From a bacterium (GTDB lineage: Bacteria; Bacteroidota; Bacteroidia; UKL13-3), in assembly GCA_034439755.1 (NCBI GenBank), contig JAWXAZ010000121.1, forward strand, positions 8,412 through 72,411: a DNA stretch of 64,000 nt, given 5' to 3'. Positions 45,480 to 63,100 of this stretch are shown in pieces. Positions within the stretch are counted from its first letter, which is position 1, and each line of letters starts with the position of its first letter. Under the pieces are notes generated by a model. That model saw only the letters and a list, made by a program, of their open reading frames with translations, did no database searches and was not told where the DNA came from. Position numbers and translations under genes: made by a program.

Positions 45480-48407
45480 ATGCTAAAAACCACCCACCTT
45501 ATATTATTTGCGCTGCTCGTTTCCTTGATTTCCAAAGTAACATTTGCCCAAAATCATGTCATCAATTGGCAAAAGAACAATCCTTGGGTAGATTCTGTGA
45601 TGAATACCCTCACCTTAGACGAGAAAATAGCACAGCTTTTTACCGTTGCCGTTTGGACACAAAGAGACAGCAATTACTTAAAAGACATTGAAAAACTGGT
45701 AAAAGATAATAAGATTGGTGGCCTAATGTTTATGAAGGGCACACCACATAAGCAGGCTGTTTTAACCAATAGATATCAAGCTGTGGCCAAAGTGCCACTG
45801 CTCATTAGCATTGACGGAGAATGGGGCTTAAACATGAGACTAGATAGCACGCCCGTGTTTCCAAGACAAATGATTCTAGGTGCCGCTAACAATGCAAGCC
45901 TAACAGAAGAAATGGCCGCAGAAATTGCCAAACACTGCAAGCGACTGGGCATTCATGTAAATTTTGCGCCAGATATAGATGTAAATAACAACCCTGCTAA
46001 CCCTGTTATAAACGACCGAAGTTTTGGCGAAAATAAATATGTGGTGGCAAAACAAGGTATAGCTTACATGAAAGGGCTTCAAAACAACCATGTCTTGGCC
46101 ACCGCAAAACACTTTCCCGGCCACGGAGATACCGAATCTGATTCGCATTTTAATTTGCCTGTAATCAAAGGAAACAGAAAGCGACTAGATTCGTTGGAAT
46201 TATACCCTTTTAAAGAGTTAATAAAGAACGATGTTGGTAGCATTATGGTTGGGCACTTGTTTGTGCCCGCAATAGACACTACCAACAATAGGGCCAGTTC
46301 AATATCGCCCTTAACCGTAAAAAAACTGCTAAAAGAAGAGATGGGTTTTGAAGGCCTTATTGTAACCGACGGACTAAACATGAAAGGGGTTGCAAATTAT
46401 GCGGCGCCTGGAGAAGTGAGCGCTAAAGCCTTGGCCGCAGGAAACGAACTTTTGCTCTTTGTAGAAGAAGTACCACAAAGCATTTTTTGGATCAAAGATT
46501 ATATGAGCTGTGGTTTAATTTCGGAGGCAGAGGTAAACAATGCCTGCCGAAAAATATTAATCACTAAACATTGGGCAGGACTAAACAAATACAAGGCCAT
46601 TGAATTGGCCAATTTGAATCAAGATTTAAATTGTTGTGCAACCGATTTACTCATTAAAAAAGTGATTAAACAAGGCATTGTGGTTGCCAAAAACATGGAC
46701 AACCTCATTCCTTTCGAATCGCCCGAAAAGTATAAAATTGCCAGCCTTGCGGTGGGCAATAATCAGTTCACCAGCTTCCAACAAACGCTTTCTAATTATG
46801 TAAAAGCCGATTATTATTCTATCGATAAAAGCGAAAGTTTGGCCGCATTTGATTCCATGTTTTCTAACATGCAGCGCTATAACCTAGTGATTATTAGCCT
46901 ACATAATACCAGCAGGTTTGTGAGCAGAAAATTAGGCCTCACACAAGCTCAAATCTCCTTTATCAATCGCTTAATTCTTGATAGGAAGTGCATTTTGGTG
47001 AACCACGGCAATCCATACATTTTACAGTATTTTACCCAAGCAAGAAATGTAATAGTTGCCTATGAAGATTTGCCCTTATATAATCAATTAGCCGCACAAG
47101 TTTTAATGGGGGCAATTCCTTCTAAAGGTAAAATGCCCGTTTCGGTAACAGCCGCCTTTCCGCTTGCTTCAGGAATTATGACTGAACCCATTCAACGCTT
47201 CGAATATGTGATGCCAGAAGAAGTGGGTGTTGACCATTTTGCCTTAAGTTTTATAGACACCATGGTGTTGCAAGGAATTAAAGAAAAGGCAATGCCTGGT
47301 TGCCAGGTTTTTATTGCACAAAATGGCAAAGTAATTTATAACAAATCATTCGGCTCTTTTACCTACGATACAAGTTCAACTAAAGTCCAGAATTACCACC
47401 TATACGACTTAGCCTCACTCACAAAAGTGTTGGCCACCACCCTTGCCATCATGAAGTTGTATGATGAAAAGGCCATTGGATTAAATGACAAGCTAGGCCT
47501 TTACTTGCCATTCTTAAGAGGCACCGCAAAAGAAAAAATCAGCATCAAGGATGTTTTGCTCCACCAAGCGGGCTTCCCTGCCTTCATTCCATTTTACAAA
47601 AGAACCATTATCAATGGAAAGCTCGATACAGCGTGGTATAGCAATAAAAAAACAGATAAAAATTGCCTGCAATTAACAGATAGCCTTTGGATTGATAAAA
47701 ATTGTGAGCAAGAGATGTTCAATGTTATTGCCATGGCCGATTTAAGAACTTCGGGTGAATATTTATATAGCGACTTGGGATTTATTTTACTCAGAAAACT
47801 AGTCGAAAATGTAAGCAATATGCCATTCGAAGCCTTTATGAATGAACATTTCTACGACCCCCTCTCTATTGCAAATTTATCCTTTAATCCGCTTAAAAGT
47901 GGAGTGCCTAAAGCAAGCATAGCCCCAACAGAAATGGATACCGCCTTTAGAAAGCAATTGTTGCAAGGTTATGTTCATGATCCAGCAGCTTCAATGTTAG
48001 GTGGCGTAAGCGGGCATGCAGGTTTATTTGGCAATGCAAACAGCGTGGGCATTTTAATGCAAATGTTGTTAAATGAAGGAATATACGGCAATGTGCGCGT
48101 CTTAAAAGCCTCAACCGTTCAACTATTTACAAGCAAACAAAACAAAAAATCAAGGCGCGGACTTGGTTTTGATAAGCCAGAAACAAATCCGTTAAAGCCT
48201 TCCCCAACAGGTTCGGAATGCTCTCCACTCACCTTTGGTCATACCGGCTTTACAGGGGTTTGTGCTTGGGCTGATCCAAAAACGGATTTGGTTTATGTGT
48301 TCTTGTCGAACCGCGTTTACCCCAATGCAGAAAACAACAAATTGGCTCAATCCAATCTTCGCACGCGCATTCAGGACTATATTTACGAAGTAACCCGTAA
48401 GAAATAA
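45480..48407 (+). CDS. Fusion protein combining a GH3 N-terminal (NagZ-like beta-N-acetylhexosaminidase) domain with a class-C/AmpH-like beta-lactamase-fold serine hydrolase domain
   Basis: GH3 motifs (KHFPGHGDTESDSH; VTDGLNM). Signal peptide. C-terminal SxxK (ASLTK), YSD and HTG-like motifs of the beta-lactamase fold. Confidence 0.75.
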   Translation: MLKTTHLILFALLVSLISKVTFAQNHVINWQKNNPWVDSVMNTLTLDEKIAQLFTVAVWTQRDSNYLKDIEKLVKDNKIGGLMFMKGTPHKQAVLTNRYQAVAKVPLLISIDGEWGLNMRLDSTPVFPRQMILGAANNASLTEEMAAEIAKHCKRLGIHVNFAPDIDVNNNPANPVINDRSFGENKYVVAKQGIAYMKGLQNNHVLATAKHFPGHGDTESDSHFNLPVIKGNRKRLDSLELYPFKELIKNDVGSIMVGHLFVPAIDTTNNRASSISPLTVKKLLKEEMGFEGLIVTDGLNMKGVANYAAPGEVSAKALAAGNELLLFVEEVPQSIFWIKDYMSCGLISEAEVNNACRKILITKHWAGLNKYKAIELANLNQDLNCCATDLLIKKVIKQGIVVAKNMDNLIPFESPEKYKIASLAVGNNQFTSFQQTLSNYVKADYYSIDKSESLAAFDSMFSNMQRYNLVIISLHNTSRFVSRKLGLTQAQISFINRLILDRKCILVNHGNPYILQYFTQARNVIVAYEDLPLYNQLAAQVLMGAIPSKGKMPVSVTAAFPLASGIMTEPIQRFEYVMPEEVGVDHFALSFIDTMVLQGIKEKAMPGCQVFIAQNGKVIYNKSFGSFTYDTSSTKVQNYHLYDLASLTKVLATTLAIMKLYDEKAIGLNDKLGLYLPFLRGTAKEKISIKDVLLHQAGFPAFIPFYKRTIINGKLDTAWYSNKKTDKNCLQLTDSLWIDKNCEQEMFNVIAMADLRTSGEYLYSDLGFILLRKLVENVSNMPFEAFMNEHFYDPLSIANLSFNPLKSGVPKASIAPTEMDTAFRKQLLQGYVHDPAASMLGGVSGHAGLFGNANSVGILMQMLLNEGIYGNVRVLKASTVQLFTSKQNKKSRRGLGFDKPETNPLKPSPTGSECSPLTFGHTGFTGVCAWADPKTDLVYVFLSNRVYPNAENNKLAQSNLRTRIQDYIYEVTRKK

Positions 48408-48522
48408 CCTAAGTGCTTCAAAAATAAATTATTGCGAATTTTGCAAATTTGTGAATTAATGGTGCACAACATTTGGATTTGATACAAATTAATCTACCTT
48501 TGAATTTCATATTATTTTATTC

Positions 48523-48831
48523 ATGAACATCTACATTGGAAATTTAAACTGGAGCACAACTGAAGATGAGTTGCGCGGCCTGTTTTCGCAGTATGGCGAA
48601 GTATCAAGTATTAACATCGTTAATGACAAGTTTACTGGCCGTAGCAAAGGATTCGGATTTGTTGAAATGCCAGAAAACACTGGCGCACAAAACGCAATCA
48701 ACTCTCTAAATGGTCAATCTTTCAAAGACAGAAACATTACCGTTAACGAAGCTCGTCCACGCGAAGAAAGACCTAACCGTGAAAGAAGGTCTTTTAACAA
48801 CGACAGAGGAGACAACAGAAGATCTTATTAA
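48523..48831 (+). CDS. RRM-type RNA-binding protein
   Basis: RNP-2 (IYIGNL) and RNP-1 (KGFGFVEM). R/G/D-rich tail. Confidence 0.9.
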   Translation: MNIYIGNLNWSTTEDELRGLFSQYGEVSSINIVNDKFTGRSKGFGFVEMPENTGAQNAINSLNGQSFKDRNITVNEARPREERPNRERRSFNNDRGDNRRSY

Positions 48832-48854
48832 TATTCTTAATTAAGAACTCAACA

Positions 48855-48890
48855 AAAAAGCCGATCAGAAATTCTAATCGGCTTTTTTTA
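48855..48890 (+). terminator. Rho-independent terminator
   Basis: AGCCGAT-CAGAAATTCTA-ATCGGCT hairpin followed by a T7 run. Confidence 0.7.
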
Positions 48891-48999
48891 TGCTAGTTAT
48901 GCAATTTCATTATGCCCTTGATAAATTATTCCGATAAACCTGTTTTCTTCAAACCATTTTCCTGCAAAAAACACAAAACGAAAACTACCCTACTCATAC

Positions 49000-49130
49000 A
49001 ATTACTAAAATCAAATTAGGCCAAATGGCAATTTGATTTTAGTGGGATAAATGCAGAAAGACAAGGTTTTTTGTCTACATACATTTGGACTATTAAATAT
49101 TGCGCATCGGTATAAATTACAATTAATTGG
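49000..49130. repeat. Conserved intergenic element, family A, copy 2. It is preceded by a 14-bp perfect inverted repeat (ACTAAAATCAAATT / AATTTGATTTTAGT).
   Basis: See copy 1. Shared core TTTGGACTATTAAATATTGCGCATCGGTATAA and upstream GCAATTTGA…AAATGC…GACAAG…GTTTT. Confidence 0.6.
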
Positions 49131-49142
49131 TTTTAGAGGCTA

Positions 49143-50354
49143 TTAGTCTTTCCTTTTTATCTTGTTTTTCTGGGCTAAGCTCATTAAATTTATCTTTTTG
49201 TAATAGCCAACTTTGCTCCCTTCTACCCAAACAATTAGCTTTTGACCATATTTTAAGTTGTTGCTCTTAAGCTTGTTCCAAGATTTAATTTCCTTTGCCG
49301 TTACATCAAACCAATCGGCCATATCGCCCAGGTTATCCCCTTTTTTAACGGTATACAAAAGTTTCTTTTTGCTAAATTTTGTTGTATTCTGTTTTGCTCC
49401 AGCAAGGGTGTCTATAGATTCCTCCTGAATCTTTTTGATTGGATCAGCCAGTATTTCGCTGCTGTTTATGGGCCTATAAACCGAATCCTTTAGGAGAATA
49501 AATTCTTTAGATTTGCTTTTTGGAACCCTAATAAAATAACCTTCTACCGAAAACGGAATAATATCTTTCCTAAAAACCGGATTTAACTCGCGCAGTTCTT
49601 CAATGCTCACGCCTGTTACAGACGATATTTGCTGAAAAGAAAGCCATTTATTCACAAGCAAAGAATCGGTCTCCACATCCACCTTCATATCTACCAAGGT
49701 AATTCCATGCTCCCGGTAATAATTCATGATATAGGCTGTTGCTATTACCCTTGGGTATAAATCCTTGCAAAAGGAAGGCATGTGCGGATAAATGTCCCAA
49801 AAATACAAACTGTTGTTGCTTATATGAATGCATTTATTTAAGGTAACAGGAGAACAACCATAACTTGCAATAGCCAGAGGCCATGATTTATAAATGCTAA
49901 ACAAATCCTTAAAATGTTGTGCAGCAATCGATGTAGATTTTAACGGATCTCTGCGCTCGTCGATATACGTATTTACCTTAAGTTTATACATTTTGCTTAT
50001 GGGATAGGCCATCATCCAAATGCCGCTTGCACCAGAGGCGTTTAAAGCAGATGGGTCCAACTCCGACACAGCAACGGCTAAATATTTTAATTCGGTTGGA
50101 ATACCCTTTGCGCGCAAGCCTTTTTCCAACATTGGAAAATATCGCCTACTTTTACTTATTAAGGACTTTGTTTTTTCTGGATTATTTAAATAATCCTCAA
50201 TAAACTGTTTAACTTGTGGATTATACGTTAATTCCAAAGGGCTCTTCAGTGCAGCCAAACGTGCTTGGTAAACCTCGTCAACACCCGCCTTGGCAATACC
50301 CACCGCACCCAAAACAAACACAAATATCACCAGTCTTTTCAATAATACTGCCAT
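49143..50354 (-). CDS. Lytic transglycosylase (MltD-like) with C-terminal LysM domain(s)
   Basis: Signal/TM anchor. SLT-domain-like core. C-terminal LysM (YTVKKGDNLGDMADWFDVTAKEIKSWNKL). Confidence 0.7.
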   Translation of the reverse strand: MAVLLKRLVIFVFVLGAVGIAKAGVDEVYQARLAALKSPLELTYNPQVKQFIEDYLNNPEKTKSLISKSRRYFPMLEKGLRAKGIPTELKYLAVAVSELDPSALNASGASGIWMMAYPISKMYKLKVNTYIDERRDPLKSTSIAAQHFKDLFSIYKSWPLAIASYGCSPVTLNKCIHISNNSLYFWDIYPHMPSFCKDLYPRVIATAYIMNYYREHGITLVDMKVDVETDSLLVNKWLSFQQISSVTGVSIEELRELNPVFRKDIIPFSVEGYFIRVPKSKSKEFILLKDSVYRPINSSEILADPIKKIQEESIDTLAGAKQNTTKFSKKKLLYTVKKGDNLGDMADWFDVTAKEIKSWNKLKSNNLKYGQKLIVWVEGSKVGYYKKINLMSLAQKNKIKRKD

Positions 50355-50489
50355 AAACGCAATTTAATCCTTATGTAGCAACACAAGGTAATAAAGTAAT
50401 CAAGATTTTAACATGAATTAGGCCCGTTTGGCCTCTAATAGAAACACCCTAAGCCAAACTAATGGCGAGGACTATTTTAGTTTCGTGCC

Positions 50490-51902
50490 CTAAGCCAAAC
50501 CCTCGGCTAGGGCGAGCAACTGCGAATCTTCATGCATCTTAGCCATAATTTGAACGCCAATTGGCATCCCATTTTCATCCTTTCCAAAAGGAATGCTTAG
50601 AGCCGGAACACCCGCAATATTTGCATGTACGGTAAATATATCAGCCAAATACATGGCCAATGGATTGTCAGATTTCTCGCCAATTTTAAACGCAGTTGTG
50701 GGCGAAGTAGGAGAAAGAATGAAATCAAACTCCTCAAATATTTTTGAGGTTTTCTCCTGAACCAAACGCCTTACTTTCTGTGCTTTGCTATAATACGCAT
50801 CATAATAACCAGCAGACAACACAAAGGTTCCTAACATAATTCTTCGTTTTACTTCTGGGCCAAAGCCTTCAGAACGCGATTTGCGCACTGTACTTTCTAA
50901 ATCTACCGCCTTTTCACTTCTAAACCCATAATGCATGCCTGCAAAACGAGATAAATTAGAAGAGGCTTCCGCCGTGGTTAACGTATAATAAACCGGAATT
51001 AAATATGGCAACAAATCAAAGCTTACTGGCTCCACTTGGTGACCAGCATCCTTCAATTTTTGTATATAAGCTTCCATAGCCAATTTAACCGCAGGCTCTA
51101 CCCCTTCGGTCTCCATGGTTTCTTTAATATAGGCAAATTTGTGCTTTTTATTTGTTTTTGGCAATCCAACAAATTGTCCAACTGGCCTTTCAGAAGCCGT
51201 AGCATCATGCTCATCTATACCAGCAATCACCTCCATCAACAATTGAATATCCTCAACGCTTTTTGCGATAGGCCCAATAATATCAAAAGAAGAAGCATAG
51301 GCAATTAAGCCCCAACGAGAAATTTTTCCATAGGTTGGTTTGAACCCATACAATCCACAAAAAGAGGCGGGCTGCCTGATACTTCCCCCCGTATCGCTTC
51401 CTAAACTGGCCAAACACATGTCTGCCTGAACTGAAACCGCCGCGCCACCAGAAGAACCACCCGCAACTCGCGTTGGATCAGCATGATTTAACACAGGCCC
51501 GTATGCCGAATTTTCATTAGATGCACCCATCGCAAATTCATCGCAATTTAGGCGACCAATGATAATGGCATCTTCGGCCAGCAAACGCTCAACCACAGTG
51601 CTCGAATATACAGAGATAAAGCCCTCTAAAATTTTAGATGAAGCAGATACTCGGTGATCCTTGTAACAAATATTGTCCTTTAAACCAATCACCATCCCTG
51701 CTAGTCGACCCGCTTTACCCGATTCCAATTTGGAATTAATAAGTTGTGCCCTTTCTTTTGCTTCATCTGTGTAAACCTCTAAAAAAGCATTTAGGTGTTT
51801 ATTCGACTCAATATTAGAAAGATAATAATCAACCAATTTTGGCAAAGAAATTTTGCCCAATTGTAAATCGGTTTGTATATTTGATAAGCTAGAATAGGTC
51901 AT
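50490..51902 (-). CDS. gatA: Glutamyl-tRNA(Gln)/aspartyl-tRNA(Asn) amidotransferase subunit A
   Basis: Amidase signature GGSSGGAAVSV…GSDTGGSIRQPASFCG. Confidence 0.9.
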   Translation of the reverse strand: MTYSSLSNIQTDLQLGKISLPKLVDYYLSNIESNKHLNAFLEVYTDEAKERAQLINSKLESGKAGRLAGMVIGLKDNICYKDHRVSASSKILEGFISVYSSTVVERLLAEDAIIIGRLNCDEFAMGASNENSAYGPVLNHADPTRVAGGSSGGAAVSVQADMCLASLGSDTGGSIRQPASFCGLYGFKPTYGKISRWGLIAYASSFDIIGPIAKSVEDIQLLMEVIAGIDEHDATASERPVGQFVGLPKTNKKHKFAYIKETMETEGVEPAVKLAMEAYIQKLKDAGHQVEPVSFDLLPYLIPVYYTLTTAEASSNLSRFAGMHYGFRSEKAVDLESTVRKSRSEGFGPEVKRRIMLGTFVLSAGYYDAYYSKAQKVRRLVQEKTSKIFEEFDFILSPTSPTTAFKIGEKSDNPLAMYLADIFTVHANIAGVPALSIPFGKDENGMPIGVQIMAKMHEDSQLLALAEGLA

Positions 51903-51920
51903 TTCAGAATAAGGCTTCTC

Positions 51921-52130
51921 TTATTTGGTTTCTTGGTCTTTGGTTTTCATGCCTTCTTCAATCTGGTCTTTCACGTTCTTTTTAGCGTCGTTGAATTCTC
52001 GCACACCCTGCCCAATGCCACGCATCAATTCAGGTATTTTTTTACCGCCAAATAAAAACACGATAGCCAATAAAATAATTAGCCACTCTCCACCACCTAG
52101 GTTTCCAATAAATAACAATGTAAAGTTCAT
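51921..52130 (-). CDS. tatA: Twin-arginine translocase subunit TatA/E
   Basis: Single TM followed by an amphipathic helix (GEWLIILLAIVFLFGGKKIPELMRGIGQGVREFN). Confidence 0.85.
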   Translation of the reverse strand: MNFTLLFIGNLGGGEWLIILLAIVFLFGGKKIPELMRGIGQGVREFNDAKKNVKDQIEEGMKTKDQETK

Positions 52131-52190
52131 TTTTTAATGAATTAATGTTGCGAAATTAGTATATTTTTTTAATTAATGGGGTTCAATGGT

Positions 52191-54245
52191 CTATTTAAGA
52201 TGCACACTCTTTTTTAATGCTTTCAACTCCTTGTCGTTTAGCTCTCTCCACTCACCACGCTTAAGCGCACCTTTTTCCATACCAGCATATAAAACCCTGT
52301 CCAACTTGTCTAATGTATAGCCTAGATGCTCAAACATTCTATGTATAATTCTGTTTTTTCCGCTGTGAATTTCAATTCCAACCACGTTTTTGTTCTTCGC
52401 ATCAGATTGAGCAATCGCATCTGGTTTAATAAAACCATCTTCCAACTCAACCCCGTTAGATAGCGTCCACAAATCTGCAGGCTTCATGTTCTTATTTAAA
52501 GTAGCCTTATAAACCTTTTTGATTTCATATTTAGGATGCATCAATCGCTGAGCCAACTCGCCATCATTGGTTAATAAAAGCACGCCAGTCGTGTTTCTAT
52601 CTAAGCGACCAATTGGGTAAACTCGCTCTCTCATTTTTCCTTCAAACATATCCATTACAGTATTTCTACCATCTGGATCATCTAAGGTGGTAATTGCATC
52701 TTTAGGCTTATTCATCACCAAATATACCTTTGCCTCAACGGCCAATTTTTCGCCATTAAAACGCACCACATCCCCAGCTTTAACCTTGGTTCCCAATTCG
52801 GTTGCAACCGCGCCATTTATGCTCACCAAACCTGCACCAATTAGTTCATCAGCTTCTCTTCTTGAACAAACGCCGGCATTAGAAATAAAACGGTTTAGTC
52901 TAACAGATTCGCCTACACTAAGCGCCTCCTCGGTAACTCTTTCTTTCGATTGTGATTTAGACTTAGAAATAAACTCCTTGTCCTTACCTAAATCAATTCT
53001 TTTGCCCCTAGATCCTGGCGTTTTGAACCTAAAATCATCGTCGCTATATTCTTTAACCTCACGCGGCTGAATGCCCTTAAGTTCCGATTTTTTAGTGAAT
53101 TTTCCTTTGCCCAAAGTGCCTTCAGAAAAATCCCTAGATTTCCTCGTTCTTGTTCCTGGCTTCCTTTCGTCAAACGCCGGCTTATCTAAAAAGCTAGGAG
53201 CCTCTTTTCTTTCTTTGTAAGTATCTGCAGATCCAAAAGCCTTTTTTTCCCTTTCGGCAAAGTCTTTTTTGTCTCCACGTTTTGCGCCTGGTCCAGTTCT
53301 TTTACCCGCCTCAAAATTATCTTCCTTATTGAATCTATCGCCGTCTCTCTTATATCCTTCGCCATCTCTCTTAAACCCATCCCCACTCGTTTTGCGGGCA
53401 TAAGGCCTGCTTTCGCCATCTCTCTTAAACCCCTCGCCGCTAGTTTTGCGGTCGTAAGGTCTGCTTTCGCCGTCTCTCTTAAAACCATCCCCACTCGTTT
53501 TGCGGGCGTAAGGCCTGCTTTCGCCATCACTCTTAAACCCATCGCCACTAGTTTTGCGGGCGTAAGGTCTGCTTTCGCCATCACTCTTAAAACCATCCCC
53601 ACTCGTTTTGCGGGCGTAAGGCCTGCTTTCGCCGTCTCTCTTAAACCCATCGCCACTCGTTTTGCGGGCGTAAGGCCTGCTTTCGCCATCTCTCTTAAAC
53701 CCATCCCCACTCGTTTTGCGGGCGTAAGGCCTGCTTTCGCCATCACTCTTAAACCCCTCGCCGCTAGTTCTGCGGGCGTAAGGCCTAGTTCCATCATTAT
53801 CCTTCTTGAAAAAGTCGCCACCACCCGTTTTGCGGGCGTAAGGTCTACTCTCTCCATCTCTCTTAAATCCGTTGCCACTCGTTTTACGGGCGTAAGGTTT
53901 GCTGCTATCGCCATCTTTCTTGAAGAAATCGCCACCACTCGTTTTGCGTGCGTAAGGCTTATCTCCCGTTTTGCGTGCATAAGGCCTGCTTTCGCCGTCT
54001 TTTTTAAACCCGTCGCCACTTGATTTGCGGGCATATGGCCTACTGCCATCACTATCCTTCTTGAAGAAATCGCCACCACTCGTTTTGCGTGCGTAAGGCT
54101 TATCTCCCGATTTGCGTGCATATGGCTTATCTCCCGATTTTCTTGGTCCTGCCGAAGATCCCCCTCTTGGTGAACTACTTTTCCTTGGTGCGCTCGAACT
54201 CGTTCTTGGCCTTGCCGACTTATTCCCTGACTGCTCTCTTTTCAT
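52191..54245 (-). CDS. rluB: RluB-like rRNA pseudouridine synthase. S4 domain plus RsuA/RluB catalytic domain, with a roughly 450-aa N-terminal low-complexity extension of about 20 tandem 19-aa repeats.
   Basis: S4 domain (RLNRFISNAGVCSRREADELIGAGLVSING). Catalytic motif (YPIGRLDRNTTGVLLLTNDG). N-terminal repeats SRPYARKTSGDGFKRDGE repeated about 20 times. Confidence 0.8.
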   Translation of the reverse strand: MKREQSGNKSARPRTSSSAPRKSSSPRGGSSAGPRKSGDKPYARKSGDKPYARKTSGGDFFKKDSDGSRPYARKSSGDGFKKDGESRPYARKTGDKPYARKTSGGDFFKKDGDSSKPYARKTSGNGFKRDGESRPYARKTGGGDFFKKDNDGTRPYARRTSGEGFKSDGESRPYARKTSGDGFKRDGESRPYARKTSGDGFKRDGESRPYARKTSGDGFKSDGESRPYARKTSGDGFKSDGESRPYARKTSGDGFKRDGESRPYDRKTSGEGFKRDGESRPYARKTSGDGFKRDGEGYKRDGDRFNKEDNFEAGKRTGPGAKRGDKKDFAEREKKAFGSADTYKERKEAPSFLDKPAFDERKPGTRTRKSRDFSEGTLGKGKFTKKSELKGIQPREVKEYSDDDFRFKTPGSRGKRIDLGKDKEFISKSKSQSKERVTEEALSVGESVRLNRFISNAGVCSRREADELIGAGLVSINGAVATELGTKVKAGDVVRFNGEKLAVEAKVYLVMNKPKDAITTLDDPDGRNTVMDMFEGKMRERVYPIGRLDRNTTGVLLLTNDGELAQRLMHPKYEIKKVYKATLNKNMKPADLWTLSNGVELEDGFIKPDAIAQSDAKNKNVVGIEIHSGKNRIIHRMFEHLGYTLDKLDRVLYAGMEKGALKRGEWRELNDKELKALKKSVHLK
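53300..54140 (-). repeat. About 20 tandem 57-bp repeats inside the rluB-like N-terminal coding region
   Basis: The unit GGCCTGCTTTCGCCATCTCTCTTAAACCCATCCCCACTCGTTTTGCGGGCGTAA is reiterated nearly identically on the plus-strand text. Spurious alternate-frame ORFs arise from it, such as 53186..54121. Confidence 0.85.
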
Positions 54246-54946
54246 CTAATCTAATTTGTTTTTCTTGGCCCTTCAAATCGCTCCATTTTGTGCACTCACA
54301 ACCATGTTTGGGTCAACCAGAGCGGGCTAATGTTAATAATAGCCTGCAAAGATAGCTATAATTTAAGGATTTATCCTATTTATCCACAAAAAGAAACCGA
54401 CTCTTTTGGGGATAATCCTTCATGGGCAGGTTCCTAAAAATTTTACTCGTAACAAAACGACATGTCATTATGGAAACAAAACCTCAAAAAGACAAAATAC
54501 ACTTTATAAATACGGTGATGGTGTTTTGTGTTTATGCATTAAATTATGCCATATTAAGAACGCTAAACCCAAATTCAGCATTAAAAAATGCTGAATCGAA
54601 TAAATCAAATCATTCGGTTTTTCAAGCCTCCTATTGATTAATTTGGGCTAAACCGACAAAAACATTTGATCGAAATTGGTCTGAATATTAAGTGTAAGTT
54701 GTTGTATATTTAGCTATTAAAACTCACAAACGAGTAATCACCCTCACAAAACTAAGATTGCAATTGTTTCGGACCCAAATGGATAATTTGGTGACTATCT
54801 TGCTCTTTTCCAATTTAACCGAGAAAACTAGAAAATGCCTTTTTGATAAAATCTTATCTGTGGGGCGCTTTAAAGCTACGGGCCTTTTTCTTTCATTAAT
54901 TATAGTTGTCAATCCTTATAAACCACAAAGCGATTACTTATCGATT

Positions 54947-55856
54947 GATGCGCTGCCGCATCATTGCATTAAACCCAAAAAAAAGCTTTGCGTTAGATTG
55001 CTGCGCTGCCGCACCATTGCATCAAACCGAAAAAAGCTTTGCGTTAGATTGCTGCGCTGCCGCATCATTGGTTCAAACCGAAAAAAGCTTTGCGTTAGAT
55101 TGCTGCGCTGCCGCGCCATTGCATTAAACCCAAAAAAAGCTTTGCGTTAGATTGTTGCGCTGCCGCACCATTGGTTGAAACCGAAAAAAGCTTTGCGTTA
55201 GATTGTTGCGCTGCCGCATCATTGCATTAAACCAAAAAAAAGCTTTGCGTTAGATTGCTGCGCTGCCGCACCATTGGTTCAAACCGAAAAAATCTTTGCG
55301 TTAGATTGATGCGCTGCCGCACCATTGCATTAAACCCGAAAAAAAACTTTGCGTTAGATTGATGCGCTGCCGCGCCATTGGTTCAAACCGAAAAAAGCTT
55401 TGCGTTAGATTGCTGCGCTGCCGCACCATTGGTTCAAACCGAAAAAATCTTTGCGTTAGATTGTTGCGCTGCCGCGCCATTGGTTCAAACCGAAAAAATC
55501 TTTGCGTTAGATTGCTGCGCTGCCGCACCATTGGTTCAAACCGAAAAAAGCTTTGCGTTAGATTGTTGCGCTGCCGCATCATTGGTTCAAACCGAAAAAA
55601 GCTTTGCGTTAGATTGTTTCGCTGCCGCACCATTGCATTAAACGCGAAAAAAGTTTTGCGTTAGATTGCTGCGCTGCCGCATCATTGGTTCAAACCGAAA
55701 AAAGCTTTGCGTTAGATTGTTGCGCTGCCACTTCATTGCATTAAACCCAAAAAAAGCTTTGCGTTAGATTGCTGCGCGGCCGCACCATTGCATCAAACCG
55801 AAAAAAGCTTTGCGTTAGATTGCTGCGCTGCCGCGCCATTGGTTGAAACCGAAAAA
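54947..55856. repeat. Non-coding tandem array of 18 copies of a 51-52 bp unit. Two sub-variant cores occur, …CATTGCATTAAACCC… and …CATTGGTTCAAACCG…, embedded in the constant GCTGCGCTGCCGC…AAAAAAGCTTTGCGTTAGATT.
   Basis: Counted directly. Unit starts are 51-52 bp apart from 54947 to 55856. The length variation comes from the poly-A tract. No unique spacers. Every frame is open, and the four track ORFs across it are artefacts. Confidence 0.9.
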
Positions 55857-55869
55857 GAAAATTCTAAGA

Positions 55870-56035
55870 GCCTTAAGAGTTTGCTATAAAATTATTTATA
55901 CAGATATAACAAAACAACGGCTCTATTTCGAGACATATCTCATTGTGCTTTTATTTTGTTATACCTGCATTTACCCTAATAAATTTGTCAAATTGCCACG
56001 GGCTTTTTGATAATTGCAATTGGCATTATTTTTTT
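55870..56035. repeat. Conserved intergenic element, family B, copy 2 (contains ATAATTGCAATTGGCATTA)
   Basis: About 75-80% identical over about 115 bp to 34990-35105. Here it lies immediately 3' of the lipoprotein gene stop. Confidence 0.6.
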
Positions 56036-56826
56036 CTTGAGAACGTTTTGGTGCGGCCGTTAACGGAAACGGTTACTAAGCCATTGCAGGCTCCATTGCC
56101 AAAATCAATTTTGCGTAAATTTTTGCCTTCTGGTGTTACTTCAATAACGCCACTTACGATGCGCCAATCACAGGCTAATTCTACGCGGAGTTTGGTGGTA
56201 ATTTGTGCCGCATAATTTATGCCATTGCGGTTGGTTCCGCTTGTTGTACCTGTAATTTCGTAAACATCGTCTAGGGCTGTAAGGGTGTTCTGGCCAGCTA
56301 CCCAAGTACGGGTTCTATTGCTATTCCAACTATGCGATTGTAAGGATGGGTTGGTAATTTTTCCATTTACCACTATGGTATAGCTAAGCTCGCCAAGTGC
56401 ATTGGGTCCGTTATTGGTAATTGATTTGGTGCCTTCCACTAGGTTGTTGTTTTGATAAAATCCATCGAAACCAACCTGTATTGCCGTGCCTGCATCTCTG
56501 TATCTGCCTGTCCAGCTAACTAAGATAAGCCCGCGGCGGTAGTTGCCATCTAAACACAGATAATTGCTTGTGCCATAGTTGATGCGCATGGTTTTGGGAT
56601 TGGCAAAGGTATCTTTGGTAATAATGGGATAAGCTCCTTTTTTTAAGCCTTCATCACCGGCGGCTTGATCTACCTGTTTAAAAATTTGATCGTAAACCAA
56701 CTCCCCCTCACTTTGGTCTTCGGCAGATGTAATATCGGTATCAAGTTCTTTGTTCTTTTTGCAACTTGAAAACAAAAGGGTACTAAATAGACATAGCGTC
56801 AATACCCAAATTATTGTTTTTTTCAT
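56026..56826 (-). CDS. Hypothetical lipoprotein
   Basis: Signal peptide with a lipobox-like sequence (LLFSSCKKNKE). No catalytic motif recognised. Confidence 0.5.
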   Translation of the reverse strand: MKKTIIWVLTLCLFSTLLFSSCKKNKELDTDITSAEDQSEGELVYDQIFKQVDQAAGDEGLKKGAYPIITKDTFANPKTMRINYGTSNYLCLDGNYRRGLILVSWTGRYRDAGTAIQVGFDGFYQNNNLVEGTKSITNNGPNALGELSYTIVVNGKITNPSLQSHSWNSNRTRTWVAGQNTLTALDDVYEITGTTSGTNRNGINYAAQITTKLRVELACDWRIVSGVIEVTPEGKNLRKIDFGNGACNGLVTVSVNGRTKTFSRKK

Positions 56827-56925
56827 GTGTTAAAATTTTGTTTTGTGAATCTAAGACCGAAAATAAGGTATAAGGTTTAAGGGGCAAGTTTATTTTTTGA
56901 GGATTAACTTTCTTATGTTTGACCA

Positions 56926-58281
56926 ATGAAGGCAAAAAGATTACTTATAGCAACACTTTCGTTTTTGGGATTATTTTCGGTTTTATACTTTCTGAACCAA
57001 AATCATTCTATAGAATTACCTGCTCCTATTTTACAAATTCTGCGCTGGGTCGCACTAGGCTTAGCGGTATGGTTTGCGATAGAAAAGCGGCATTTAACGG
57101 CGTGGATTTTGGTTGCCATGTTTATTGGGATTGCTTTAGGAAGCGACTTCCCCGAAATAAGCAAACCCCTGAAAGTTTTAAGTGATATTTTCCTGCGATT
57201 AATCAAGACAATCATTGCTCCTTTAATTTTTAGCACCCTGGTGGTGGGTATTGCTGGTCACTCCAACATTAGACAAGTTGGAAGAATGGGTTTAAAATCC
57301 ATCATATATTTTGAAGTAGTGACCACTGTCGCACTCGTAATAGGACTTTTTGCTATCAACCTTTCGCAGGCTGGAGTAGGATCAAAACTAGAGGCTCAAA
57401 GTTCCCAAATTGAGAAAGCCAATAGTTTGCTTTCGCAAAAGCAAAGTCATGATGTAATTCTCGACATTTTCCCAGAAAACATTGCCAAGGCTGTTGCCGA
57501 GAACCAAATACTTCAAATTGTGCTATTTAGTATTCTTTTTGGAATTGGTTTGGCCATGGTAAAAAACGAGGAGAAAAAGGCAGCAATTCTTTTGTTTTCA
57601 GAGGGATTAAGTGAGGTAATGTTTAAGTTTACCCATATAGTAATGTTATTTGCGCCTTTGGCAGTTGGGGGTGCAATGGCGTATTCAGTTGCCAGTTTAG
57701 GAATGGGTGTTTTAGGCAATTTACTTAAACTGGTACTCACTTTATATGGGGCATTATTTGCATTTGTCGCACTGGTGCTGGTGCCAATAGGGCTGATGGT
57801 TAAGCTGCCTTTTAAGAAGTTTATTGATGCCATTTCGGAACCAGTGTCTATTGCCTTTGCTACGGCAAGTTCTGAGGCCGCTCTTCCTAAGGCCATGGAA
57901 AAGTTAGAGCAAATGGGCATTCCAAGAAAAGTGGTGGCCTTTGTTTTGCCCACAGGTTACAGTTTTAATTTGGATGGAACCACCTTGTACTTGTCTCTCG
58001 CCTCAGTTTTCATTGCACAGGCATCTGGATTTGACCTCACCATTGGCGAACAAATTCAAATGTGTTTAATTTTAATGTTAACCAGTAAAGGTGTTGCTGG
58101 GGTGAGGGGGGCTTCCTTTTTAATTTTGGTAAGCACGGTTTCCTCTTTGGGCCTCGACCCTACCAAAGCCTTTGCGATATTGGCTGTTGATGCCTTGATG
58201 GACATGGGCAGAACATCGATTAATGTAATTGGAAATTGTTTGGCAACGTATGTAATTGCCAAATGGGAGGGTGAGGTTTAA
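56926..58281 (+). CDS. Dicarboxylate/amino-acid:cation symporter (DAACS, GltP/DctA-like)
   Basis: DAACS-type TM/hairpin layout with conserved stretches (…AFVLPTGYSFNLDGT…; …MDMGRTSINVIGNC…). Confidence 0.75.
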   Translation: MKAKRLLIATLSFLGLFSVLYFLNQNHSIELPAPILQILRWVALGLAVWFAIEKRHLTAWILVAMFIGIALGSDFPEISKPLKVLSDIFLRLIKTIIAPLIFSTLVVGIAGHSNIRQVGRMGLKSIIYFEVVTTVALVIGLFAINLSQAGVGSKLEAQSSQIEKANSLLSQKQSHDVILDIFPENIAKAVAENQILQIVLFSILFGIGLAMVKNEEKKAAILLFSEGLSEVMFKFTHIVMLFAPLAVGGAMAYSVASLGMGVLGNLLKLVLTLYGALFAFVALVLVPIGLMVKLPFKKFIDAISEPVSIAFATASSEAALPKAMEKLEQMGIPRKVVAFVLPTGYSFNLDGTTLYLSLASVFIAQASGFDLTIGEQIQMCLILMLTSKGVAGVRGASFLILVSTVSSLGLDPTKAFAILAVDALMDMGRTSINVIGNCLATYVIAKWEGEV

Positions 58282-58380
58282 GGCATACAATTCACAATAT
58301 ATTCTGCATAGTTGTGATTAGGGCGTATGCAATGAGCGCTTTAGCTTGACTATTTTTGTGGGTAATAAAACACCCATCCT

Positions 58381-59619
58381 TTGATTAATTACAACCAATT
58401 TAAACTGGATAATGGGCTTACTGTTATCCATCATTTTGATGATTCTACGCAGTTATGTGCGCTGAATATCCTTTATAACGTAGGCTCCAGAGACGAAGAT
58501 CCATCCAAAACGGGATTTGCACACTTGTTTGAACACCTCATGTTTGGGGCTTCAACGCATGTAAAAGAGTTCGATGTTGAATTGCAAATAGCTGGCGGAG
58601 AAAGCAATGCTTTTACGAGCAACGACATAACCAACTATTATGTAACGTTGCCAGCAAACAATATTGAAACCGGATTTTGGTTGGAGAGCAGCCGCATGCT
58701 TAGCTTAGATTTTAACCAAAAAAGTCTGAATGTTCAGAAAAATGTGGTGATAGAGGAGTTTAAGGAGCGCTATCTCAATCAGCCTTACGGCGATGTTTGG
58801 TTGCATGTTCTTCCTTTAGCATATCAAAAGCACCCTTACAACTGGCCTACTATTGGAAAAGAAATAGCTCATATTGAGCAGGTTAACTTGGATCAGGTTA
58901 AAGATTTTTTCTTTAACTACTACGCTCCAAATAATGCGATATTGGTTCTTGCGGGCAAGATTAGTTTGGAAGAAACGAAGCGACTTTCAGAAAAGTGGTT
59001 CGGGCCAATTGAAAGAAGAGGGACACAAAGAAATCCATACGAGCAAGAGCCGGTTCAGACCGAAGCTAGAAGCAAACACATATACAACGATGTGCCTTTA
59101 GATTTGTTGGTTAAAGCCTACCACATGGGGGGCAGATTAGACGCTGATTATTATTCGTGCGATTTGCTTTCTGATATTTTGGGGTCTGGGAAATCTGCGC
59201 GATTTTATAATCGCTTGGTAAAAGAGCGACATTTGTTTAGTGAACTCGATACTTATATTAGTGGTGATGCCGATCCTGGCTTGTTTTTAATTGAGGGAAA
59301 ACTGATGAAGGGTGTCAGTTTTGAAGTGGCAGAACTGGCCATTTTAGAGGAGTTAGAATTTTTAAAAAACAATCCAATTGATCCAAATGAATTGACCAAG
59401 GTTTTGAATAAAACTGAAACCAATATTCGCTTTGGGGATTTGAGCCTTTTGAATAGGGCTATGAAGCTGGCTTTTGCAGAGTTTCTAGGCGATTTAAGCC
59501 TCGCAAACACCGAAATTGACCACTATCTAAGCGTAACAACAGATTCGCTCTTAGAGGTTTCAAAATCGATGTTCGTTGAGAGCAATTGTTCCACTTTATA
59601 TTATCACGCCAAAATATGA
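58381..59619 (+). CDS. M16-family zinc peptidase (pitrilysin/insulinase-like), active subunit
   Basis: Inverted zinc motif HxxEH (HLFEHLMFGAS) and downstream E (…NAFTSND…). Confidence 0.85.
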   Translation: MINYNQFKLDNGLTVIHHFDDSTQLCALNILYNVGSRDEDPSKTGFAHLFEHLMFGASTHVKEFDVELQIAGGESNAFTSNDITNYYVTLPANNIETGFWLESSRMLSLDFNQKSLNVQKNVVIEEFKERYLNQPYGDVWLHVLPLAYQKHPYNWPTIGKEIAHIEQVNLDQVKDFFFNYYAPNNAILVLAGKISLEETKRLSEKWFGPIERRGTQRNPYEQEPVQTEARSKHIYNDVPLDLLVKAYHMGGRLDADYYSCDLLSDILGSGKSARFYNRLVKERHLFSELDTYISGDADPGLFLIEGKLMKGVSFEVAELAILEELEFLKNNPIDPNELTKVLNKTETNIRFGDLSLLNRAMKLAFAEFLGDLSLANTEIDHYLSVTTDSLLEVSKSMFVESNCSTLYYHAKI

Positions 59620-60893
59620 TTTTAGATAGAAATATTGCGCCTGCATTTCATGCGGTTAAATCGCTAAACTTTCCAGACTATCACACCTATGAAGTAAGAG
59701 ATGGGCTATTGTTATACGGTTTAAATGCTGGCACACAAGAGGTTATTAGGTTAGACTTAATATTTAACGCGGGATTAATTAAGCAAATCAGCTTAGCACA
59801 ATCGGCATTTACGGCTAGCATGTTAAGCGAGGGCACCTCTCACAAGAGTGCGAAGGATCTTGCAGAGGCCTTAGATTATTATGGCTCCTATTTTCAAACC
59901 CGCAACAATGCAGACGATGCCGTTGCTACGCTATACTGTTTAGAAAAACACTTAAGTAAGTGCTTGCCTTTGTTTATTGAGGCGCTAACCGATTCGATAT
60001 TTCCTGAAAAGGAATTACAGATTCAAAAGAAGAATAGCATTCAGAAACTAATGGTTAATGAAAAGAAAAACAGCTATTTGTGTAAGAAAAGTTACTATGC
60101 AAACATGTATGGCAAAGAGCACCCGTATTCTTCTTTTAGCACTAAAGAATCGATAGAAGCCGTTAACAGGGAATCGCTGCAAAGCTTTTATTCTAGCAAC
60201 TATATACTGGGTTTAAAATACCTGATGATATCTGGGAAATACAAAGATGAAATTATAAATCAGATTATAGAGGAAATGAGGAGTACGCCCTTTCAATTAG
60301 ACTCTTCTGAAAACCTCGACATACAAGGCAAGAGCAATCAAGGAAAACATTTCATTGAAAAAAACGACTCAGTTCAATCGGCCATTAGAATAGGCAAGCA
60401 AAGCATTTCTAGGTCGCACCCAGAGTTTAGAAAACTACAGTTTCTTAACCTAATTTTTGGCGGATATTTTGGATCAAGATTAATGAAAAATATCAGGGAA
60501 GACAAAGGCCTTACCTATGGTATTTATTCCGTTATTGAGCCAAATTTAATAGGCTCTTCTTGGTATATTGACTCTGATATAAACACAAAAAACAGGAGTC
60601 TGGGCTTAGAGGAAATCTACAAGGAGATGGCCAAGATTAGGGAGGAGCTAATTCCTGAGGCAGAAATTGAAACAGCTCGAAACTACTATCTAGGCTCGTT
60701 TCTTAGGAGTTTGGACGGACCCTTTTCATTGGCAGATCGCCTTAAAATACTAATCGATTATAAGTTGCCCAATACTTATTACCCAGAATTTGTAGAAATA
60801 TTAAACTCCCTTGGCGCAAAGGAGTTACAGGAACTTGCACAAAAATACTTCTCAGAGCAAAATATCGTTGAGGTAATAGTAGGTAAAAAGTGA
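59616..60893 (+). CDS. M16-family peptidase-like protein lacking HxxEH (non-catalytic partner subunit)
   Basis: M16 C-terminal-type fold signatures without the zinc motif. ATG at 59616 overlaps the upstream TGA (ATGA). Confidence 0.7.
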   Translation: MILDRNIAPAFHAVKSLNFPDYHTYEVRDGLLLYGLNAGTQEVIRLDLIFNAGLIKQISLAQSAFTASMLSEGTSHKSAKDLAEALDYYGSYFQTRNNADDAVATLYCLEKHLSKCLPLFIEALTDSIFPEKELQIQKKNSIQKLMVNEKKNSYLCKKSYYANMYGKEHPYSSFSTKESIEAVNRESLQSFYSSNYILGLKYLMISGKYKDEIINQIIEEMRSTPFQLDSSENLDIQGKSNQGKHFIEKNDSVQSAIRIGKQSISRSHPEFRKLQFLNLIFGGYFGSRLMKNIREDKGLTYGIYSVIEPNLIGSSWYIDSDINTKNRSLGLEEIYKEMAKIREELIPEAEIETARNYYLGSFLRSLDGPFSLADRLKILIDYKLPNTYYPEFVEILNSLGAKELQELAQKYFSEQNIVEVIVGKK

Positions 60894-62614
60894 AAAAAAT
60901 TCTCGTCATCATAATGCTCTCTCTCATGTCTGGAAATGTTATGGCCCAGAAAATAGTCTTTGCTAGAGTATGTAATGGTGGAAACAACAATAATCTTTAT
61001 TGGCAAATTCATGCTAATGCCTGCATCATTGTAGGGAATTTAAAACTCTACTCGAAAGATGCGGATGCTTTGCCATTTTTTTTGTTGGATTCTGGAATTC
61101 TTGTGGCAAGTAAAACCTATAGCCACGTCAATGCTAATGTGCCCAGTACAAAAGACTGGAGCTACTTCTTCACCTACCAAATAATTTGCGGAATTGACAC
61201 AATTTTGGCATCAACAGATACCTTAAAAATAGATGATCAAAAACCTGACTCTACGATCTTAGATTCGGTTAGCATTGATCCCATAACCAATTCGGTAATG
61301 CTGGGGTGGACATCAAACAAAACACCCGACTTTAGTTCCTATTATTTATACAATTATGACAGGGCTGATCCAAGATTAATTGAAAACTATAAAGACACGT
61401 TTTACGTTGACAACAGTACAATTAACCCAAAGTCAAAATCCTTAAGCTACGACATTACGAGTTCGGACAGTTGCGACAATAGGAAGGAATATGGCAATTA
61501 CCAGCATAAAACAATCTGCCTAAAAGGAAGCATAGACACATGCGAGAATAAGATAAGCCTAAATTGGAATGCATATGTTGGGTGGCCAGTAAGAGTATAT
61601 GAGCTTTACCGCAGAATTAACGGAAATACTTTTCAATTGGTAGATTCATTTGCTTCATCGGTGTTATCATTTAATGAAAACATTAATATGGTAAATACAA
61701 AAGTGGAATACTTTGTAAGGGCAAGAAAACTTGGTGTGCCCCATTCTTCGTCTAGTTCCAACATGTCGAGTCTATTCAACACTGGCTTTTCAATAAACCC
61801 ATTTGACACAAAAATTTCTTATGTGAGCAACAATATTGGCAATAATATAGAAGTTAAGGTTGAAAGAAACCCCTTATCTAACTATTTAAGCATAGACCTA
61901 TATAGAATAAGTGAGGCAATGTTTCCTGTATTGGCCCATAGTTTTGCTAGTACAGAGTCGGTCTATATTGACAATGATGCTATCAACACGCTTAAGCACA
62001 CATACTATCTTATGAGCAGAAACATGTGTGGGATAATAACGGACACGAGCGAACTGTCAAACAACATCGTCTTAAAATTATCTGACCTAAACAGCCAACT
62101 GGGTCTAAATTGGGGTCCCTATTTCACGTGGAACACCGGCGTTAAAGAATATATAATTTACAGATCATCAGGAAGTACTGTAGCTGAGGCGAGCAATTTC
62201 GTGGCATTGTCCAATAGTGCAATTGATACAATATACATAGACGATAAGGGTGCTCTTGGGGCCTATTGCTACTATATAAATGCCATTGAGAATGCCGGTT
62301 CAAACACAAGTCAGAGTAACAAAGTATGCTACATCAAGACAGGAAACATATACTACCCTAACGCTATTGTTCCCAATGGGGTAAATAATATTTTCAACTT
62401 TATTGGCGATGGAATAGACCTTTCTAAAAGCTCGTTTCAAGTATATAATAGGTGGGGGCAATTAGAGTATAATACAGAGAGCATGTCTTTAGGCTGGAAA
62501 GGAATAAACAACGCGGGCCAAGATATCCCTGGCGATGTTCTTTTCTTTACTGCACAGATAAGACAGGGCACAGAAACAGTAAATATTAAGGGGAATATAA
62601 CCATAATAAGATAA
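60890..62614 (+). CDS. Secreted protein with T9SS type-B (gliding-motility-associated) C-terminal domain
   Basis: Signal peptide. C-terminal roughly 90 aa YYPNAIVPNGVNNIFNFIGDGIDLSKSSFQVYNRWGQLEYNTE…GWKGIN…GDVLFF… matches the type-B CTD pattern (FxPNGDGxND…YNRWG…W.G). The GTG start overlaps the upstream stop. Confidence 0.65.
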   Translation: MKKILVIIMLSLMSGNVMAQKIVFARVCNGGNNNNLYWQIHANACIIVGNLKLYSKDADALPFFLLDSGILVASKTYSHVNANVPSTKDWSYFFTYQIICGIDTILASTDTLKIDDQKPDSTILDSVSIDPITNSVMLGWTSNKTPDFSSYYLYNYDRADPRLIENYKDTFYVDNSTINPKSKSLSYDITSSDSCDNRKEYGNYQHKTICLKGSIDTCENKISLNWNAYVGWPVRVYELYRRINGNTFQLVDSFASSVLSFNENINMVNTKVEYFVRARKLGVPHSSSSSNMSSLFNTGFSINPFDTKISYVSNNIGNNIEVKVERNPLSNYLSIDLYRISEAMFPVLAHSFASTESVYIDNDAINTLKHTYYLMSRNMCGIITDTSELSNNIVLKLSDLNSQLGLNWGPYFTWNTGVKEYIIYRSSGSTVAEASNFVALSNSAIDTIYIDDKGALGAYCYYINAIENAGSNTSQSNKVCYIKTGNIYYPNAIVPNGVNNIFNFIGDGIDLSKSSFQVYNRWGQLEYNTESMSLGWKGINNAGQDIPGDVLFFTAQIRQGTETVNIKGNITIIR

Positions 62615-63047: not shown

Positions 63048-63100
63048 TGTTCCACGTGGAATGGCAAATAGCAAAAACCAAACTGTTCCACGTGGAATGG
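63048..63100. promoter_or_regulatory. Two direct copies, 36 bp apart, of TGTTCCACGTGGAATGG. Each contains the 12-bp perfect palindrome TTCCACGTGGAA. Candidate operator upstream of ybeY.
   Basis: Exact 17-bp matches at 63048-63064 and 63084-63100, about 125 bp upstream of the ybeY start. Confidence 0.5.

Follow-up and report, generated by a model that had tools for sequence, protein, structure and literature searches.

The window analysed here is a 64,000-nt stretch of contig JAWXAZ010000121.1 (GenBank assembly GCA_034439755.1, positions 8,412 to 72,411) from a bacterium of the phylum Bacteroidota. It is a piece of ordinary Bacteroidota chromosome, carrying metG, icd, mutL, an amidase gene, rluB, pairs of peptidase M16 genes, ybeY and mnmG, and it also encodes proteins with T9SS sorting domains and CHU_C. 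Between rluB and a gene for a lipoprotein-like protein lies a 1.78-kb gap (54246-56025) in which we found no credible coding sequence, the open reading frames (ORFs) being at most 130 aa long, and which holds the subject of this analysis, a head-to-tail array of 51-53-bp units. The array and the genes on its two sides are as follows:

54943-55856, no strand assigned: tandem array, consensus GATTGCTGCGCTGCCGCACCATTGGTTCAAACCGAAAAAAGCTTTGCGTTA
52191-54245, minus strand: RluB-type pseudouridine synthase (left flank; Pfam S4 and PseudoU_synth_2), with a long N-terminal extension of 54-bp coding repeats
56026-56826, minus strand: 266-aa lipoprotein-like protein (right flank), bearing a lipoprotein-like signal but assigned to no Pfam family

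With the two genes both encoded by the minus strand, the lipoprotein-like gene has the array on its downstream side and rluB has it upstream.

Structure of the array

Tandem Repeats Finder (TRF) delimits an array of 914 bp (period 51, 17.8 copies, 88% matches, 1% indels, score 1364), with alternative periods of 103 and 154, and the 103-bp period outscores the 51-bp one. An earlier note on this DNA, made from the letters alone, had described 18 tandem copies in a gene-free gap, and the TRF result, the division into units and a 28-nt pattern spanning the unit junction all bear this out: the pattern matches 17 times in the window, always within the array, compared to 0 matches expected from 100 shuffles. 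The start that had been given, 54947, differs from the TRF start merely by choice of phase. Cut at the invariant GATTG, the array yields 17 full units and a truncated last unit of 39 nt. The full units are 51 bp (n = 11), 52 bp (n = 4) or 53 bp (n = 2) long, with a mean period of 51.47 bp, and one A6-A8 tract occurs in each unit, every 51.47 bp. A short dyad, GGTT-CA-AACC, with arms of 4+4 bp, is found in most units and is missing in a third of them, and AAAGCTTT is present in many. Allowing up to 3 mismatches, we found no copies of the unit elsewhere in the window.

The description of the units as carrying one of two 15-nt cores is roughly right, with six cores of the GCATTAAACC type and eight of GGTTCAAACCG, but it leaves aside four intermediate units (GCATCAAACCG in units 2 and 17, GGTTGAAACCG in units 5 and 18). 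With these intermediates included, the core forms resemble a short series of mutations more than two separate modules. A longer A-run and 1-2 extra bases always accompany the GCATTAAACC-type core. Because the 52- and 53-bp units are tied to one core type, they are true variants and not random homopolymer errors, and they break every reading frame. When the variable columns are sorted by position modulo 3, they split 5/5/3, that is, without three-base periodicity or an excess at third positions, and the three open frames of the array have no match among 5.8 billion protein clusters. On these three grounds, the first of which the earlier note had already invoked, the array is not protein-coding. 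The two ORFs of the gap that lie outside the array have no Pfam matches.

The units differ from one another in an ordered way. The mean number of differences between units is 6.0 at lag 1, 4.2 at lag 2 and 4.1 at lag 10; units 3 and 15 are identical, as are units 7 and 10, and two blocks of 300 nt that lie ten units apart are 94% identical. Such a pattern would be expected of a dimeric higher-order repeat that was followed by block duplication, through unequal recombination or slippage with homogenisation. The edges of the array are sharp, with no degenerate units and with flanks that are no nearer to the unit than shuffled sequences, and a local progenitor of the unit was not found in these flanks. 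Such edges fit a young array, or one that arrived ready-made.

An independent assembly of short reads (Logan contigs of SRR6448212) is 100% identical to the window at 41559-52873 and 55812-64000, which amounts to 19.5 kb of flank. The right-hand contig ends 45 nt inside the array and reproduces its right junction, so that the right edge is not an assembly artefact, a worry that had been attached to the array when it was first noticed, and the break inside the array is usual for repeats in short-read graphs; the interior and the copy number are known from one assembly only.

The junction in relatives

For comparison with relatives, we scanned 185,579 species-representative genomes for the SDF transporter that is encoded beyond the lipoprotein-like gene and fetched 1.28 Mb of sequence from 80 loci. 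These loci come from metagenome-assembled genomes (MAGs) of freshwater or other environmental Bacteroidota, with SDF identities of 57-93%. Many of them (SDF identity of 79-93%) retain the gene order amidase-rluB-[spacer]-lipoprotein-SDF, and the 266-aa lipoprotein-like gene is present in many array-less relatives at 49-78% identity (tblastn). In seven relatives (L003, L007, L019, L017, L009, L010 and L012), the spacer between rluB and the lipoprotein gene is ~280 bp long and array-less, and consists of ~100 variable nt, a 60-nt element, a short GC hairpin and the stop codon of the lipoprotein gene. No 51-bp array was detected by TRF at this junction or anywhere else in the 1.28 Mb, and an nhmmer search of the same sequences with a profile of the unit returned the Logan copy only, plus marginal matches of 18-20 nt.

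Against the 80 loci, blastn finds only 54139-54399 of the gap conserved, and in an alignment of 12 syntenic intergenic regions the window diverges from the plan of its relatives right after the 60-nt element. Since the departure falls exactly at this point, the segment that follows is an insertion relative to the relatives:

54335-54397, minus strand: conserved element of ~60 nt upstream of rluB, at the left edge of the variable site and outside the array
54400-56025, no strand assigned: lineage-specific segment (array plus unique flanks), inserted between this element and the lipoprotein gene (3' end)

The conserved element, AGCCnGCAAAGATAGCTATAATTTAAGGATTTATCCTATTTATCCACAAAAAGAAA, keeps an identity of 91-97% across 12 relatives, in contrast to its diverging flanks. 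It contains a perfect Bacteroidota -7 box (TATCTTTG) at 54354, directed toward rluB, with no -33 TTG at the standard spacing, and two tandem ATTTATCC motifs, one of which makes a perfect DnaA box (TTATCCACA, 54380-54388). The element could be a regulated promoter or a DnaA-binding site.

Other relatives carry unrelated cargo of 5-8 kb at the same junction (L005:1262-9106, L006:3267-9106 and L059:4887-9791). In one relative the cargo encodes a TauE exporter, GH53, a cytochrome c peroxidase and an MFS transporter, and in another lycopene cyclase/BCD, a GT2 glycosyltransferase, a Schlafen-like helicase and traces of S24 peptidase and GIY-YIG; from some relatives the lipoprotein gene is wholly absent. 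The occurrence of the array, of unrelated cargo and of lipoprotein-gene absence at one site leads us to regard the rluB-lipoprotein site as a hypervariable junction and an insertion hot spot.

The MAG contigs of L002, L004, L009, L010, L016, L017 and others break off within ~1.5-2.2 kb upstream of SDF, either at the lipoprotein gene or slightly past it. The lipoprotein-rluB region may thus be hard to assemble in relatives too, with the rluB coding repeats or other arrays as a possible cause, and arrays in relatives may consequently be under-sampled. One distant relative (L040, SDF 71% identical) has a non-coding array of its own just upstream of SDF (8723-9188, a 112-bp unit in 4.2 copies), with an extra, separated 112-bp copy at ~9420-9560. 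The likeness of this 112-bp array to the unit of the window is not significant, as 14 of 300 shuffles align equally well.

Beyond these loci, the junction motif has 0 exact matches in the 185,579 species-representative genomes and 0 in viral contigs. Seven matches in metagenome contigs were rejected as isolated chance singletons in unrelated contexts. A blastn search of segment 54400-56025 against 72,556 plasmids and 50,697 phages gave no match, and a look-up of the full RluB protein, by which further strains were sought, returned no record. The impression that the unit has no described relatives thus holds for sequence, across the genome, metagenome, viral, plasmid, phage and protein-cluster collections that were searched.

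How the array may have arisen and what it may do

Taken together, these observations point to a known kind of object that has recently expanded locally at a variable site. We consider that the array is probably a young, lineage-specific, non-coding minisatellite or satellite without a dedicated product. The window holds three tandem arrays in 64 kb (with units of 51 bp, 114 bp and, in coding sequence, 54 bp), and its genome is thus prone to tandem duplication. The array would have grown in place from one 51-bp unit through replication slippage and unequal homologous recombination, first in steps of two units (103 bp) and later through duplication of a block of about ten units, and exchange between units would have homogenised it. 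We infer this mode of expansion from the pattern of differences between units, and likewise infer that the array is not transcribed and has no selected function.

Several observations weigh against such a neutral history. As many as 38 of the 53 alignment columns are invariant, the 14-mer TTTGCGTTAGATTG is identical at all 17 unit junctions, and all length changes are confined to 51-53 bp; this invariance and the narrow range of lengths could reflect constraint rather than homogenisation. A non-coding array of 18 copies and 0.9 kb is also unusual in a compact genome, where pure neutrality predicts fast loss. In addition, one subclade of relatives conserves a 19-nt stretch of the unit, TTTTTCGGTTTGAACCAAT, as a single copy in its rluB-SDF promoter region, which hints at the core as a candidate protein-binding site, and the array sits at a change of sign in GC skew that has the polarity of an origin.

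The main rival, which we judge unlikely, is a functional protein-binding array comparable to plasmid iterons or the sopC centromere of the F plasmid. Each unit would provide one site for the cooperative loading, every ~five helical turns, of a DNA-binding protein (nucleoid-associated, partition or regulatory), and the array would serve either as a platform for this loading or to titrate the bound protein as a decoy. The direct repeats with their mean period of ~4.9 turns, the invariant 14-mer and columns, and the dyad and AAAGCTTT motifs would suit this reading, as would the skew switch for an array that serves in partition or titration. In the rluB-SDF promoter region, L011, L013 and L015 have a conserved 18-19-mer in single copy that is matched by the v2 core (nhmmer E = 0.06-0.09, with an exact 18-mer in L015); the minus-strand core TTTTTCGGTTTGAACCAAT is found there once in each of the three, and its position is conserved. 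However, the single-copy motif of the relatives is oppositely oriented, its statistics are marginal, and similar matches with 2 mismatches also occur inside coding regions. The putative core itself exists in two forms with intermediates and is therefore not strictly conserved, and none of the relatives that share the gene order has the array.

The sopC locus of the F plasmid comprises 12 direct repeats of 43 bp, each with an inverted repeat that binds SopB. The array resembles iterons and sopC in its direct repeats of ~40-50 bp, its combination of a constant segment with a short dyad and its spacing by a nearly whole number of helical turns. It differs from them in its chromosomal housekeeping context without plasmid similarity, in having no rep, par or regulator gene in or beside the gap (the neighbours being rluB, the lipoprotein-like gene and the SDF transporter gene) and in a dyad that has arms of just 4 bp and is lacking in a third of the units. 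The iteron or operator array that had been proposed is thus reduced to a formal resemblance. It had further been argued that the period would place bound proteins on one face of the DNA. This is approximate only, since 51.47 bp corresponds to 4.90 turns at 10.5 bp per turn, which gives a drift of ~35 degrees per unit, and the period would come near to phase only if the local helical repeat were ~10.3 bp.

Transcription of the array as a long, unstructured repetitive RNA, for example by read-through from the lipoprotein gene, appears rather improbable to us; such an RNA might act as a protein sponge or platform or be a source of small RNAs. Read-through would traverse the array, given that its two flanking genes share the minus strand, and 52-nt arrays of Bacillus coagulans are indeed transcribed (PMC8625621; PMC8161180). 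Two hairpins, however, stand in the path of such transcripts:

55898-55970, minus strand: long hairpin with a 20-bp stem in the RNA fold and 29-nt inverted-repeat arms (z = -3.4, with 0 of 200 shuffles as stable)
54567-54600, minus strand: hairpin of 10 bp (AUUCAGCAUU/AAUGCUGAAU, then UUUGGGUUU), terminator-like, between the array and the rluB upstream element

The first of these, just downstream of the lipoprotein gene, is likely to be a terminator that stops the lipoprotein transcripts before they reach the array, and the second lies beyond the array. Neither side has a Bacteroidota-type promoter (TTG-N(15-24)-TAnnTTTG) pointing into the array, and a scan for promoters of the sigma-70 type found none pointing into it either. 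With Rfam, the whole window gives two tRNAs only at the gathering score, and the gap gives noise only at E <= 10. Blocks of 4 units fold worse than dinucleotide shuffles (z = +2.5 for the plus strand and +1.9 for the minus strand), and RNA of the whole array is likewise less stable than its shuffles (z = +4.9 and +2.2, respectively); as single-stranded DNA, the array folds indistinguishably from shuffles. A markedly unstructured RNA would suit a platform for single-strand binding, and a gene for an RRM-domain protein lies ~6 kb off, but any direct-repeat array that lacks internal palindromes is expected to show little self-complementarity, and the array is not conserved in relatives. The array thus appears to have no transcript of its own, and the earlier suggestion of a repetitive RNA finds no support in the Rfam, folding, promoter and hairpin results.

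For a young satellite, the reading that we prefer, the evidence against a protein, a structured RNA and a dedicated transcript implies that any effect of the array is probably exerted at the DNA level and is incidental. The array would add a spacer of 0.9 kb between the terminator of the lipoprotein gene and the rluB upstream element, and an A6-A8 tract every ~five helical turns could favour bent DNA or the cooperative binding of nucleoid proteins.

That the array is part of the chromosomal replication origin or accessory to it, for example as an origin-proximal regulatory or titration element, is very improbable in our view. The cumulative GC skew has its minimum at 54-56 kb, and its sign changes from negative to positive at ~54000-57000. 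Calculated per gene, the skew to the left of the gap averages -0.017 for plus-strand genes and -0.157 for minus-strand genes, and to the right +0.093 for plus-strand genes and +0.015 for the single minus-strand gene; this separates the effect of strand from that of position, and the positional component flips at the gap with the polarity of an origin, although the sequence to the right of the switch amounts to only about 8 kb, which makes the skew evidence thin. Gene orientation diverges at the switch, syntenic relatives show the same change of sign, and mnmG (gidA) begins ~8 kb to the right. Just one perfect DnaA box occurs in the 64 kb, at 54380 and 560 bp from the array, within the highly conserved element described above, and a box with one mismatch lies 19 bp away, at 54407. 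The conserved element also fits a plain rluB promoter, however, and dnaA and dnaN are not among the window genes scanned. The units of the array contain no DnaA boxes, so that the array lacks the DnaA-box cluster of an oriC, while its flank has the one perfect and the one 1-mismatch box. Relatives have only ~150-280 bp between the flanking genes and no array, and this spacing is too short for an array-dependent origin; an essential role at the origin is therefore unlikely.

We give next to no credence to a decayed protein repeat of 17 codons, a pseudogene remnant akin to the coding repeats of the adjoining rluB, as the source of the array. The commonest unit of 51 bp does equal 17 codons, 3 of the 6 frames are open within the unit, with ORFs of up to 130 aa, and rluB carries coding repeats of 54 bp, but the 52- and 53-bp units, the lack of a third-position excess and the unmatched open frames all speak against it, as does the absence of an upstream ORF body or start context, of a gene at this place in relatives and of an intact homologous repeat protein at the 80 loci. 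When 1.84 billion representative proteins were searched exhaustively with HMMER, the longest ATG ORF (110 aa, minus strand) gave 16 weak matches of 20-37% identity, all of them to other 17-aa-periodic repeats, for which the periodicity inflates the score.

Two of these matches were followed to the DNA. One (L091) is unrelated to the array. The other (L092:4975-5340; ENA ERZ27233560, from a GC-rich bacterium) is a 51-bp array of ~7 units that is called as a 203-aa ORF and has an imperfect hairpin, CATTGCGAGCCGCCC-AGA-GGGCGGCGAAGCAATC, as its unit. It shares 16 of 19 nt (GTGAGATTGCTTCGCCGCC) with the unit of the window, which is probably due to chance, given the enormous size of the search and the lack of the rest of the unit. 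It illustrates that 51-bp non-coding arrays exist in other lineages.

An assembly artefact, whether a spurious expansion or a chimeric join, is scarcely credible: the interior and the copy number do depend on one assembly and the short-read contigs stop at the array, but the exact right junction with its 45 nt of array in an independent contig, the identical flanks and a higher-order structure of unit differences of a kind that assemblers do not invent all contradict it.

Known repeat systems and neighbouring features

Non-coding tandem repeats with a constant unit length of 52 nt (51-53 nt) are known from Bacillus, Paenibacillus and a few other Firmicutes and were described as 'only found in Firmicutes' (PMC8161180). 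They are treated by Subirana & Messeguer in Int J Mol Sci 2021 (PMC8161180) and Genes 2021 (PMC8625621), and, as related in the former, this class was also reported by the same authors in J Bacteriol 2020. In that class, even strains of one species share the sequence only in part, units often combine short signature sequences with the reverse complement of these, and unit lengths other than 52 nt are rare within a genome. Their arrays usually have 4-10 copies, with occasional arrays of 25-37, and both protein polymerisation on DNA, which the authors favour, and small RNAs have been proposed to explain them (PMC8161180). The array of the window resembles this class in its intergenic, non-coding units of 51-53 nt, in the division of units into a constant and a variable part, and in a species-specific sequence, being absent from the 80 related loci and all collections searched. 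It differs in its host, a member of the Bacteroidota, and in its commonest unit, which is 51 bp rather than 52 bp. Whereas the Firmicutes genomes each hold many arrays and families of the same length, the window has one 51-bp array in 64 kb, and its other non-coding array has a unit of 114 bp. Moreover, an inverted repeat of 7-12 pairs is found in 16 of the 24 consensus units published for the class, compared to 6-7 pairs with a mismatch here.

We therefore file the array as a bacterial non-coding satellite that matches the 52-nt size class, without counting it as a demonstrated member. To call it undescribed, as the earlier note did, overstates the case for the kind of element, since satellites of 51-53 nt are described in Firmicutes (PMC8161180); what is new here is this sequence and its phylum only. 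A bolder proposal, to which we would assign only a small chance, is that the array is the first Bacteroidota member of a length-selected 52-nt class, an origin-proximal array for protein loading that reuses the core CGGTTTGAACCAAT, a single conserved promoter-region site in relatives. If so, a period of ~five turns would have been selected independently in distant phyla, possibly because arrays of this kind are a substrate on which a protein (nucleoid, partition or regulatory) polymerises. A complete genome with many arrays of 51-53 bp would extend the Firmicutes constant-length class and strengthen the case for selection of ~52 bp. Should the array be no more than a young satellite, it is of modest, practical value: a hypervariable junction is marked by it, short-read assemblies break at it, and it would be a good strain-typing marker, a variable-number tandem repeat (VNTR), for this freshwater lineage.

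MIRU and similar repeat families are dispersed over many loci, often in operons with small overlapping ORFs, whereas the array of the window has neither a second locus nor a solo unit within the 64 kb. With prokaryotic satellites and VNTR minisatellites (such as MIRU of Mycobacterium tuberculosis; PMC6749651), it has in common that intergenic repeats of tens of bp are arranged head to tail. These satellites and VNTRs gain and lose copies through slippage or unequal recombination and differ from strain to strain; in general surveys, non-coding satellites of long unit length are rare among bacteria (PMC6749651). The 18 copies and 0.9 kb of the array are at the high end for bacterial minisatellites.

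A CRISPR array was considered and rejected, in agreement with the first description. The likeness lies in a regular period and in the combination of a constant with a more variable segment. In contrast to CRISPR, the units abut directly, every segment recurs and no unique spacers separate them, the variable part consisting of two recurring forms and their intermediates; the repeat is not palindromic, and the 51-bp period is shorter than a repeat plus spacer. A Pfam scan of 30 window proteins found no cas families, some ORFs lying outside that scan.

On the rluB side, the array is adjoined by 340 nt of unique AT-rich sequence. A Bacteroidota-type promoter match, TTTG-21-TAGTTTTG, lies there at 54754 on the minus strand and faces away from the array. 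It would fit a possible small transcription unit at 54565-54790 (minus strand), composed of this promoter (TTTG, 21 nt, TAGTTTTG), ~150 nt, the 10-bp hairpin and then UUUGGGUUU; the minus-strand fold of 54555-54745 has z = -2.3, and the segment has no Rfam match.

The N-terminal extension of RluB comprises ~430 aa, with basic 18-aa repeats, SRPYARKTSGDGFKRDGE, in the window at 53358-54140; TRF places the corresponding coding repeat at 53358-53958 (period 54, 10.9 copies), and this repeat also interrupts the short-read contigs. In relatives, the extension is built on other periods (45, 69, 87, 90 and 126 bp), which indicates that the coding repeat is evolving fast. The second non-coding array of the window, at 4566-4935, has 3.3 copies of its 114-bp unit, which are 97% identical and very C/A-rich on the plus strand, and sits between tRNA-Ser(GGA) and the 3' end of a gene encoding 3022 aa.

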